Source: a phage. From it: a stretch of 64,000 nt of DNA. Below are positions 39,380 through 41,918 of the stretch, piece after piece (position 1 is the stretch's first letter; the number at the start of each line of letters is the position of its first letter). The position numbers and the translations under genes are program-made. The stretch is taken from NCBI GenBank assembly GCA_014740375.1, contig GCA_014740375.1_3041.1; one strand, given 5' to 3'. The notes beneath the pieces are model-generated. The model saw nothing but the letters and a program-made list of their open reading frames with translations, made no database searches and had not been told where the DNA came from.

Positions 39380-39957
39380 TTATATACTGATTCCGTAAGG
39401 GTTGTTACTTCATCTATTTTATACCAATGCGTTTCAACCATTTCACGCTTGCTTATATCATCAAGAAAACTTGCATCTAATTGAACCGTTGAATTAACAC
39501 GATGCCTTTTAACGATGCGAGAAACAACTACTTCATCTGCATAAGGTAACGCAGCATATAACAGAGCAGGCCCGCCAATTACGCTTACTTTAGAATTCTG
39601 ATCAAGCATAGTCTCGAATGGTGCATTAGGACTTGATACTTGAATTTCACCACCAGAAATGTAAGTTATATACTGTTCCCATGTAATATAGAAATGTGCT
39701 AAATCGCCGTCTTTAGTTACAGGATAATCACGCGCAAGGTCACACACCACAATATGACTACGACCGGGAAGCAATGTAGATAATGACTGGAACGTTTTAG
39801 CACCCATAATCATAATTGTACCTTCGGTACGAACTTTAAAATTCTGGAGGTCCTTTTTAACTCGCCCCCATGGTAAACCATCACCTAAACCGAATGCTAA
39901 TTCATTAAAGCCTTCGACCGTTTTAGTTGGAGAATAAGCGAATACCAATTTAATCAT
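39376..39957 (-). CDS. frd: Dihydrofolate reductase
   Basis: 193 aa; MIKLVF ... N-terminus; T4 length. Confidence 0.95.
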
Positions 39958-40202
39958 TACGCAAAACCCCTTTCAAGAAACCATTCAGTGGCTTTATTAG
40001 CATCAAAGAATAATTCTTCATACGTCTTTTCTTTGTTTTCAAAAACTGTCACACAAACACGTTGACATTCTCCGCAGTATTCTTCTGACATACTCAAAGC
40101 GTCAGAAAACATTTCATTAAATTCACTTAAATCAGGATTATGCAATGCGTTAAAAATTGCATAATCGAATTCATCATTCATAAATTCAAATACAAAAATC
40201 AT
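39957..40202 (-). CDS. Hypothetical protein (frd.1 position)
   Basis: 81-aa ORF. Confidence 0.55.
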
Positions 40203-40213
40203 ATTATCTCCTA

Positions 40214-40546
40214 TTAAAAAGGATCAGGAACATATCCGCTAGCTTTAATCATTTTAATTAACGTTAACATTCCTTTGTTAACTGCTCGTGAGATTTCATC
40301 AAAAACTTCATCACTAAAAAGTTCTAACACGCCCTTCTGAACTTTTAATTTACAGCCAACAATTTCTTCATCGCCTATAGTAAATTCATTACCACCAATT
40401 CCACCGAAAAACTTAATTACACCAGTTAACTGTCTTCCACGAGAATATGGGTCGTGTGATAAAGTAATATGAGTCACCCCGGGTACAGTTTTAAATTGGC
40501 AGCGAATATTTACTTGTGAAATTCCAGTTACATGAATGTCAGACAT
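40214..40546 (-). CDS. Hypothetical protein (frd.2 position)
   Basis: 110-aa ORF. Confidence 0.55.
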   Translation of the reverse strand: MSDIHVTGISQVNIRCQFKTVPGVTHITLSHDPYSRGRQLTGVIKFFGGIGGNEFTIGDEEIVGCKLKVQKGVLELFSDEVFDEISRAVNKGMLTLIKMIKASGYVPDPF

Positions 40547-40556
40547 AATATTTTCC

Positions 40557-40799
40557 TCAAATAGACTTTTTCACAATTTTCCAATCAGCTTTAAACTGAT
40601 CAACGTCAGAGTGATAAATCCAAAATCCTGCGCTTTCACCGTCTTCATAAAGCGGACACCCATCGCATTCATCTTCCCATCCCATATCACGCAAAAGATG
40701 TTCAGCTTTTTCAACAAGCTCAGAATCTTTACCGATGATATTAAAATACCATTTACCTCTAACTTCTGAATCTTTGATGCTCTGACGTTGTAATCTCAT
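40557..40799 (-). CDS. Hypothetical protein (80 aa)
   Basis: ATG at 40799 preceded by AGGAG and an early promoter; track start at 40856 lies inside the promoter. Confidence 0.5.
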   Translation of the reverse strand: MRLQRQSIKDSEVRGKWYFNIIGKDSELVEKAEHLLRDMGWEDECDGCPLYEDGESAGFWIYHSDVDQFKADWKIVKKSI

Positions 40800-40824
40800 T
40801 TTATTCTCCTTAGTTGATAAGGCT

Positions 40825-40854
40825 ATAGTATCACTACCATAGCCTGTTGTAAAC
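40825..40854 (-). promoter_or_regulatory. T4-type early promoter
   Basis: Minus strand GTTTAC, 18 bp, TACTAT. Confidence 0.5.
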
Positions 40855-40856
40855 AA

Positions 40857-41117
40857 TTATTTTTGAATTTTATCAAGCCACTTACCAAGCTTAATCATTT
40901 CTTTAGTAGCCTTTTCCATACTTCTGAACTTAACCAATAGAGGATAGGTATCGACACCCATAACTAAGCTAGTTACAAGACTGTGTTCACCCACAAGCCA
41001 TAACGAATACGTTTGAATATCGAGCCCGTAATTTCTGTCTTTATGGACCCGTACACCCATCACTTCAAATTTCTCACTAGCTTTTTCTACCGCATCCAGG
41101 AAATCATCTTTAGTCAT
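40857..41117 (-). CDS. Hypothetical protein (86 aa; alternative start 41159)
   Basis: ORF immediately downstream of the 126-aa ORF. Confidence 0.45.
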   Translation of the reverse strand: MTKDDFLDAVEKASEKFEVMGVRVHKDRNYGLDIQTYSLWLVGEHSLVTSLVMGVDTYPLLVKFRSMEKATKEMIKLGKWLDKIQK

Positions 41118-41118
41118 A

Positions 41119-41499
41119 TTAGGCCTTAAAAGTTTTTCGCAAAAGTTCAATGATTTCATCTACATTGTTTTCGTCAACAATGCAGTGAATTTTTGTTACG
41201 CCAGAAACCTTGTCTTTGACTTCATCTTTTTCAGAAGTCGGTTCTTTATACTCACGAAAACAATGAAATTCGTCTTCGCAAATTTCTAAAAGTCTATCTT
41301 TGAGGTAAAAATGCTTTCCATTTGCGCATTCAATGTGTTTTACTGCTTTATATCCATTAGCGACGGAAACTTCTTTAACTTCAAACCATCCGCCATTATC
41401 TCGAATCGCTTTAACTATTGATGAATTAGAACGTGGGCTATAATTAATAAATGTATCAATAAGTCTTGGAACAAGCTCATACTTTTTACCGGTATACAT
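41119..41499 (-). CDS. Hypothetical protein
   Basis: 126-aa ORF. Confidence 0.5.
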   Translation of the reverse strand: MYTGKKYELVPRLIDTFINYSPRSNSSIVKAIRDNGGWFEVKEVSVANGYKAVKHIECANGKHFYLKDRLLEICEDEFHCFREYKEPTSEKDEVKDKVSGVTKIHCIVDENNVDEIIELLRKTFKA

Positions 41500-41544
41500 T
41501 ACGTTTTCCTCATTTTAATAGGGGCTGTAATAGCCCCTCGATAA

Positions 41545-41772
41545 TTATTGTTCAATCAGTCCCATGTAAAATTCTGCGTCTTCAGAATCCATGCCATCAC
41601 AGTATTCATTAGCCATAAAGCGGGTGAGATCTTCAAGAGGACCTTCAATAACGATTTGAATACTCCAAAACTTAGAATCTTGCACGCTTGTGATACTAAG
41701 TTCAGGATAACGATTACGAATAATCTCTTCAATATATTCAAAATCAACGATGTCAATATCAACTTTAGCCAT
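41545..41772 (-). CDS. Hypothetical acidic protein (75 aa)
   Basis: ATG at 41772 with GAGGA Shine-Dalgarno downstream of an early promoter; track extension to 41898 would include promoter and terminator. Confidence 0.55.
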
Positions 41773-41815
41773 ATTATTTTCCTCTTTAATCATCAGCAGT
41801 ATTGCCGATAGTTGT

Positions 41816-41845
41816 ATAGTACCATAGAAGGACAAGGATGTAAAC
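41816..41845 (-). promoter_or_regulatory. T4-type early promoter (cassette family B)
   Basis: Minus strand A/T-rich upstream tract, GTTTAC, 18 bp, TACTAT; flanks shared with 58928-58957 and 62736-62765. Confidence 0.55.
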
Positions 41846-41877
41846 CGTTTTGTGAAAAAAATTTTTGAAATAAAAAA

Positions 41878-41896
41878 GGGGACCTCTAGGGTCCCC
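41878..41896 (-). terminator. Rho-independent terminator of gene 32
   Basis: GGGGACC-loop-GGTCCCC followed by TTTTTTATTT on minus strand. Confidence 0.65.
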
Positions 41897-41918
41897 AATT
41901 AATTAGTAATATAATCTA

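Follow-up and report, generated by a model that had tools for sequence, protein, structure and literature searches.

Why should the interval between gene 32 and frd, the dihydrofolate reductase (DHFR) gene, hold six small open reading frames (ORFs) in one T-even phage and only three annotated genes, frd.1, frd.2 and frd.3, in phage T4? The six ORFs lie in a stretch of 64,000 nucleotides (nt) from phage contig GCA_014740375.1_3041.1 (GenBank assembly GCA_014740375.1), the whole of which is referred to here as the window. On the minus strand of positions 39957-41898 the order from gene 32 to frd is frd.3, frd.2, ORF86, frd.1, ORF110 and ORF81. The interval is very probably a hyperplastic region of a T-even phage, in which six real genes are found and gene content varies by recombination at short repeated regulatory sequences.

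The corresponding interval of T4 (AF158101.6, 145691-146947) shares with the window the flanking genes and two early promoter motifs, and its annotation consists of frd.1, frd.2 and frd.3, as had been stated in a first, sequence-only reading of the window; the case that would have made the region conserved, namely the same six ORFs in T4, is not what is seen. T4 differs in the absence of ORF86, in a scar of ORF110 followed by the last bases of ORF81, and in a different frd.2 allele (65% amino acid (aa) identity). In blastn alignments, the parts of the window without a counterpart in T4 are 41125-40814 (ORF86) and 40534-39977 (most of ORF110 together with ORF81). ORF110 and ORF81 are replaced in T4 by 71 nt. 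At their start stand the ribosome-binding site also seen in the window and an ORF of 16 codons (MYVIEIIQVSIRFQLK, then a stop), and at their end the last ~14 nt of ORF81. This short ORF resembles the first 20 residues of ORF110 (MSDIHVTGISQVNIRCQFKT), with a DNA similarity that beat 2000 of 2000 shuffles. Because T4 keeps a remnant of the 5' end of ORF110 and the 3' end of ORF81, it is best read as a deletion derivative for these two genes and not as the ancestral minimum; an imprecise deletion would have removed most of ORF110 and ORF81 to leave the three-gene state. The six-gene state had also been presented as something more than T4, and T4 does have fewer genes, but the deletion scar means that the six are not an addition peculiar to this phage.

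Where the window has ORF86, frd.2 of T4 runs directly into the promoter, behind which lies an unannotated ORF of 22 aa with its own Shine-Dalgarno sequence. This mini-ORF (MFAPYIMAAVMLVCLYLLIKAC) is strongly hydrophobic (grand average of hydropathy 2.05). It occupies minus-strand positions 2079-2144 of the fetched T4 AF158101.6 locus, where it separates frd.1 from its promoter. Five phages (T4, T6, slur02 and two metagenomic T-evens) share it with 100% identity and the window lacks it; probably it is a genuine gene for a small membrane peptide that the T4 annotation has missed.

Among relatives, whose loci were fetched and read from gene 32 to frd, at least eight presence/absence arrangements were seen. 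The window and RB18 have the full set, which in EC121 lacks ORF86, in slur02 and T6 lacks ORF86 and includes the 22-aa mini-ORF, and in JEP6 lacks ORF110. T2 and teqhad have frd.3, frd.2, frd.1 and ORF81, and FL18 (Mosigvirus) has frd.2, frd.1 and ORF81, with frd.3 not detected. Two metagenomic phages carry ORF86 with ORF110 and ORF81 both absent, and in T4 the order is frd.3, frd.2, mini-ORF, frd.1 and scar. In most Dhakavirus loci (JS10 and others) the order is frd.2 (duplicated in JS10), ORF86, frd.3 and frd.1, followed by other genes. The fetched JS10 locus (1840-3450) has tandem frd.2a and frd.2b, ORF86 after frd.2b, and frd.3 moved between ORF86 and frd.1. A query spanning ORF86, frd.1, ORF110 and ORF81 was covered to at least 80% in 80 of 922 matching phage records, so the six-gene form is a minority but common arrangement, and an evenly spaced sample of the 922-record ranking shows all arrangement classes. 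A scan of IMG/VR with Frd.1 yielded 12 loci, informative for arrangements and too few for statistics. The proposal of a variable early accessory module is therefore borne out, both by this range and by the lack of ORF86, ORF110 and ORF81 in T4.

The boundaries of the variable segments suggest how such differences may come about. The ORF110 indel is gene-precise and falls exactly between two similar translation-initiation sequences; in teqhad, JEP6 and FL18, which lack ORF110, only one site, the hybrid AAGGAAAATAATATG, is present, and it leads straight into ORF81. On either side of the frd.1 promoter lie the ORF86 and mini-ORF indels, and in Dhakavirus the relocated frd.3 lies behind a promoter of this type. 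Genes directly upstream of frd.1-type promoters all end in TTCAAAAA[T/G]TA[A/G] followed by GTTTAC, an ending seen for frd.2 in T4, T2 and EC121, for ORF86 in the window, JEP6 and JS10, and for frd.3 in JS10. (These endings are at 40820-40860 of the window and at 2864-2900 and 3145-3200 of the fetched JS10 locus.) In Tequatrovirus no such promoter comes after frd.3, which has a different ending. Since the ending is shared whichever gene precedes it, the promoter cassette seems to bring with it the final codons of the gene upstream and to serve as a joint for recombination. On this view, recombination at short repeated regulatory sequences would add, remove or exchange single-gene cassettes, and an involvement of the junction repeats in this process is plausible.

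Whole blocks are probably also exchanged by ordinary homologous recombination between co-infecting T-evens, and the window offers an example. By sequence it is a Tequatrovirus, RB18-like, with 98.5% identity to Enterobacteria phage RB18 over a 3.6-kb region and 99.4% over the six-ORF interval. In the alignment with T4 and the RB phages that had been proposed as a check, RB18 is nearly identical and has all six as annotated coding sequences, KMB98_gp171-176 (Frd.3, Frd.2, RB18ORF238, Frd.1, RB18ORF236 and RB18ORF235), where T4 has three genes. Order and spacing are equal in the two phages and all six proteins are 100% identical, whereas the flanking gene 32 and frd are ~2% diverged; the window is therefore not RB18 itself but a relative sharing the block. 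Across 39800-41600 (1.8 kb) a single position differs, against ~2% on both flanks, which points to a recent exchange of this block by recombination. The six-gene arrangement is not new, with annotations in RB18 and others, and the genes themselves are annotated in dozens of T-even genomes besides RB18 and RB51.

Variation of this kind could also have run the other way, with the three extra ORFs as recent insertions ('morons') into an ancestral T4-like three-gene arrangement. Homologues of ORF86 and ORF110 do occur, each alone, in unrelated phage families (Phapecoctavirus, Webervirus), which points to mobility between phages, and frd.2 has its last codon changed by the ORF86 cassette, as expected of an insertion, Frd.2 ending in KTFKA where ORF86 follows and in KTFKK where it does not. 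This explanation is nevertheless unlikely, given that the degraded ORF110 5' remnant and the ORF81 3' end make T4 the derived form for both genes and that ORF81, found in ~450 records including those of T2 and T6, is absent only as a minority state.

A driving role for a homing endonuclease or other mobile element in the interval is much less probable again. It would have a precedent in T4, where the interval is closely flanked by SegG, encoded upstream between 32 and 59, and by I-TevI, encoded downstream in td, and such elements promote exchange of flanking markers. However, the window has no segG and its td is intronless, and the indel boundaries are ribosome-binding sites and the promoter cassette, not endonuclease genes. 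In Pfam, PHROG and NCBIfam, none of the six proteins matched an endonuclease (GIY-YIG, HNH or LAGLIDADG), recombinase, transposase or integrase family.

The six ORFs are genuine protein-coding genes. Their number, lengths and coordinates had been given correctly in the sequence-only reading, and all six lie on the minus strand. Strong Shine-Dalgarno sequences had been noted there too, and a Shine-Dalgarno sequence lies at the proper distance before each ORF. For three of the genes a program-made ORF list holds longer versions (99, 100 and 117 aa); the shorter starts are preferred, as they have a Shine-Dalgarno sequence upstream, are the same as in the RB18 annotation and let homologues match end to end. 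Each of the six matches a PHROG family of unknown function end to end (E <= 2e-34), and each is under purifying selection, with changes mostly synonymous and a ratio of non-synonymous to synonymous rates (dN/dS) of at most 0.2 (Nei-Gojobori, against relatives). It had been stated that none has a recognisable domain. Four of the six do match Pfam families above the curated gathering thresholds, namely Phage_FRD3 (135.6 bits against a threshold of 28.1), FRD2 (114 against 29), DUF5417 (114.6 against 23.9) and DUF7247 (148.3 against 27); what stands of the statement is that all these families are of unknown function. That some of the ORFs are not genes but are open merely by chance in AT-rich spacer DNA, as their shortness (75-126 aa), the lack of a Pfam family for ORF86 and ORF81 and the antisense ORFs of similar length in the region might suggest, is effectively refuted by the PHROG matches, the Shine-Dalgarno sequences, the dN/dS values and the detection of T4 Frd.1, Frd.2 and Frd.3 by proteomics.

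Table 1. Features of the frd-32 interval and its flanks, with positions in the window.
Feature	Position	Strand	Description
frd	39376-39957	minus	downstream flank; dihydrofolate reductase gene
ORF81 (RB18ORF235)	39957-40202	minus	81 aa
Ribosome-binding-site repeat 2	40200-40213	minus	TAGGAGATAATATG; right boundary of ORF110 cassette
ORF110 (RB18ORF236)	40214-40546	minus	110 aa, DUF7247
Ribosome-binding-site repeat 1	40544-40558	minus	GAGGAAAATATTATG; left boundary of ORF110 cassette
frd.1	40557-40799	minus	80 aa, DUF5417
Hairpin over frd.1 promoter spacer and -10	40820-40845	minus	11 bp, AGGCTATGGTA-GTGA-TACTATAGCCT
Early promoter motif upstream of frd.1	40825-40854	minus	GTTTACA, 17-nt spacer, TG-A-TACTAT
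ORF86 (RB18ORF238)	40857-41117	minus	86 aa
frd.2	41119-41499	minus	126 aa
Hairpin between frd.3 and frd.2	41520-41538	minus	AGGGGCT-loop-AGCCCCT, without U-tract
frd.3	41545-41772	minus	75 aa
Early promoter motif upstream of frd.3	41816-41845	minus	A/T-rich stretch, GTTTACA, 17-nt spacer, TG-G-TACTAT
Intrinsic terminator hairpin after gene 32	41878-41896	minus	GGGGACC-CTAGA-GGTCCCC, then T-run
Gene 32	41919-42827		upstream flank of six-gene interval

Beyond the interval, td (38102-38962) is intronless in the window, where T4 td has an intron with I-TevI, and segG is absent between gene 32 and gene 59 (42828-42926), unlike in T4. Between frd and td, at 39008-39379, there is a 123-aa ORF without a Pfam match; at the matching place RB18 has a shorter coding sequence of 115 aa (recorded as NrdA.2/RB32ORF229c) and T4 has none.

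The interval may be expressed as two early transcription units. The first would consist of the terminator and an early promoter followed by frd.3, frd.2 and ORF86, and the second of an early promoter followed by frd.1, ORF110 and ORF81, running on into frd, whose start overlaps the stop codon of ORF81 (TAATG). Early promoters had been proposed at both places, and both motifs are present, on the minus strand, intergenic and conserved in T4, T2 and T6. Cores of TTTACA and TACTAT with 17 nt between them lie at 41844-41816 and 40853-40825, with extended -10 elements at 41824-41816 and 40833-40825. Both sites have the features of T4-type early promoters, that is a (G)TTTAC(A/T) -35 element, a spacer of ~17 nt and TGn with a -10 hexamer. 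T4 early promoters have been described in terms of UP, -35, TGn and -10 elements (PMC2988021), and both sites also fit the promoter early stem-loop (PeSL) consensus of PST and T4, TTTACW-N17-TAYWAT (PMC4122927). Upstream of the frd.3 promoter lies TTTTTTATTTCAAAAATTTTTTTCACAAAAC; the frd.1 promoter abuts the coding end of ORF86 (AAAATTCAAAAATAATT), which is only partly A/T-tract-like. The hexamers of the frd.3 promoter are invariant in nine phages and its spacer is rewritten, differing among T4, teqhad and the window, and the frd.1 promoter is conserved in T4, T2, T6, EC121, JEP6 and JS10.

Three hairpins accompany these elements. The terminator after gene 32 has 7 pairs, 6 of them G-C (-14.3 kcal/mol), and is conserved in T4, T2, T6 and others. 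The hairpin over the frd.1 promoter (-15.6 kcal/mol, z -3.3) has arms that differ in sequence in T4, JS10 and FL18 and yet pair; it might mark the 3' end of the upstream transcript or stabilise it, or might be a recombination site. The JS10 allele of this hairpin is that of the window and not that of T4. The hairpin between frd.3 and frd.2 (-12.7 kcal/mol, z -2.7) has a stem that nearly all of 11 compared phages retain and a loop that varies. A search of Rfam gave no credible RNA family in 39000-43200.

In T4 all four genes, frd and frd.1 to frd.3, have been classed as early by their RNA; at the protein level frd, frd.2 and frd.3 are again early, and frd.1 is middle (PMC9697503 supplement). 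Since each of Frd.1, Frd.2 and Frd.3 was given a protein expression class, all three proteins were detected. A listing of T4 middle promoters has none between Ptd and P32, as would be expected if early promoters drove the expression of the whole interval. ORF86, ORF110 and ORF81 would likewise be expressed early, as their position in units with early T4 counterparts suggests.

Frd.3 (PF05798, E 8e-40) has 100% aa identity to its T4 counterpart and a dN/dS of 0-0.15; it is very acidic, with an isoelectric point (pI) of 4.05 and a net charge of -13, and frd.3 mRNA is among the NAD-capped RNAs of T4. Frd.2 (PF03197, E 5.5e-33) is hypervariable over its N-terminal ~90 aa, with at least three allele types and 41-81% identity among Tequatrovirus phages (65% between the window and T4, 41% to JEP6 and 81% to T2, compared with 100% to T4 for the flanking frd.3). 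The last ~30 aa hardly vary within Tequatrovirus, and other genera conserve them well. The N-terminal pattern, found among T-evens that are otherwise nearly identical, looks like the outcome of allele swapping or diversifying selection. An LSm-like fold has been predicted for T4 Frd.2, as part of a GoF/MotB.1/Frd.2 family of Tevenvirinae (Kim et al. 2025, PMC12152347). The 126-aa protein of the window is an FRD2 member whose N-terminal half corresponds to the part predicted to form a five-stranded LSm-like barrel, so that the same fold is predicted here by way of T4 Frd.2 and family membership, although this domain is only ~65% identical to that of T4. ORF110 and ORF86 were considered as further LSm-like members of the family and rejected (hhalign probability 0.2-0.3% against the Frd.2 alignment).

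ORF86 (phrog_4423, E 8.5e-50; no Pfam match) was found by tblastn in 349 phage records, 195 of them at 90% identity or more, including Dhakavirus, Phapecoctavirus and Webervirus. Lone homologues have ~60% identity in Phapecoctavirus, ~42% in Webervirus siphoviruses and 32% in a Pantoea phage. Its dN/dS is 0.02-0.06 at a dS of 0.5-1.2, with 19-31 synonymous against 3-12 non-synonymous changes relative to Dhakavirus, and between Tequatrovirus and Dhakavirus it is 89-98% identical where its neighbours are 54-76% identical. Between genera it is also more constrained than DHFR (dN 0.02-0.06 against 0.09). An exhaustive profile search found only 12 clusters among 1.8 billion representatives, which makes ORF86 a small phage-only family. 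The AlphaFold model, with a predicted local distance difference test score (pLDDT) of 87, has an alpha-beta3-alpha layout and gave no informative fold match. ORF86 is thus dispensable, since T4 lacks it, and yet by these substitution estimates the most strongly constrained protein of the interval. Its dispensability, its constraint and its occurrence as a lone gene in accessory arrays of Phapecoctavirus and Webervirus have led to the speculative idea, held here as a minority view, that it could be a horizontally mobile inhibitor of a conserved enterobacterial target (defence or housekeeping), carried on an early-promoter cassette with a -10 that, set within the hairpin, also serves as a joint for recombination.

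Frd.1 (PF17438, E 2.5e-33) is 97.5% identical in aa to T4 Frd.1, with a dN/dS of 0.02-0.18. ORF110 (PF23905, E 1.4e-43; dN/dS 0.09-0.13) is present in 478 phage records by tblastn, with an allele of 66-70% identity in T6 and RB68 (66% in T6). Its structural model is poor (pLDDT 60; five strands and a helix). ORF81 (phrog_3183, E 7e-43; no Pfam match) is present by tblastn in 451 phage records, nearly all at 95% identity or more and including T2 and T6; the family is narrow (8 clusters), and its dN/dS of 0.05-0.2 derives from very few substitutions. ORF81 is as acidic as Frd.3 (pI 4.05, net charge -13). The two were considered as paralogues and rejected, there being no detectable similarity between them.

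From context and composition, the proteins may well be dispensable early host-takeover or counter-defence factors that bind host or phage macromolecules, a suggestion that falls just short of probable. Leads within it are Frd.2 as a candidate LSm-like RNA binder, Frd.3 and ORF81 as putative highly acidic small binders, and ORF86 as a possible tightly constrained binder of a conserved target. Similarity in sequence or fold to a characterised anti-defence inhibitor was looked for and not found, and literature searches found no functional data for ORF86, ORF110 or ORF81 and no paper that mentions DUF7247, DUF5417 or their Pfam accessions.

Several observations weigh against the account given here of a hyperplastic region with early-expressed accessory genes. 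The junction repeats are short and imperfect, and T4 ribosome-binding sites resemble one another anyway; the direction of change, insertion or deletion, is settled for ORF110 in T4 alone, and for ORF86 it could have been either. The frd.1 promoter has no upstream stem-loop of the canonical PeSL kind, its hairpin overlaps the -10 instead, and this hairpin is missing from some Dhakavirus copies. Promoter activity in this phage is deduced from sequence and from T4, and a simple consensus scan gave 12 sites overall where shuffles predicted 13.2, which is not above chance. The argument for the promoters accordingly rests on position and conservation: unlike the other sites of the scan, these two lie between genes on the coding strand, and T4, T2, T6 and other phages conserve them. 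As to function, sequence searches of the PDB (profiles of ORF86 and ORF110; Frd.3, Frd.1 and ORF81) gave nothing better than E 0.37, NCBIfam and PADLOC scans of the six proteins gave nothing meaningful, and fold searches gave no informative match. Lastly, frd.2 is the only T4 'Fit' (fitness) gene of unknown function in the CRISPRi-ART screen (PMC11879866), and despite that score T4 frd.2 amber mutants plate normally (PMC12152347).

The locus alone matters little, as its genes are already annotated and placed in PHROG or Pfam families, and the concepts of the hyperplastic region and the promoter cassette are already in the literature. Even so, it offers a clean worked example of single genes added or removed at regulatory micro-repeats, and it identifies T4, the reference genome, as a depleted form at the frd-32 locus. 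Mildly intriguing are the combination of constraint and mobility in ORF86 and the rewriting of the 3' end of the upstream gene by the promoter cassette. Functional screens of T-even accessory genes could include as candidates ORF86, the N-terminal domain of Frd.2 with its hypervariable sequence, and the two acidic proteins, Frd.3 and ORF81.

Hyperplastic regions and PeSL cassettes have been described for T4-type phages (PMC4122927), and PeSL mini-circles have been detected by PCR in infected cells (Arbiol et al. 2010, PMC2839356). The frd.3 cassette has the full anatomy of the PeSLs of these reports (Arbiol et al. 2010, PMC2839356; Comeau et al. 2014, PMC4122927), with the terminator hairpin at 41896-41878, the promoter at 41845-41816, the Shine-Dalgarno sequence GAGG and the ATG at 41772. 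In contrast to a PeSL-bounded segment, the ORF110 indel is bounded by repeats of the ribosome-binding site. Elsewhere in the interval, indels and gene reshuffling adjoin promoter cassettes as described for hyperplastic regions, and the locus as a whole matches the published hyperplastic-region/PeSL model of T4-type genome plasticity.

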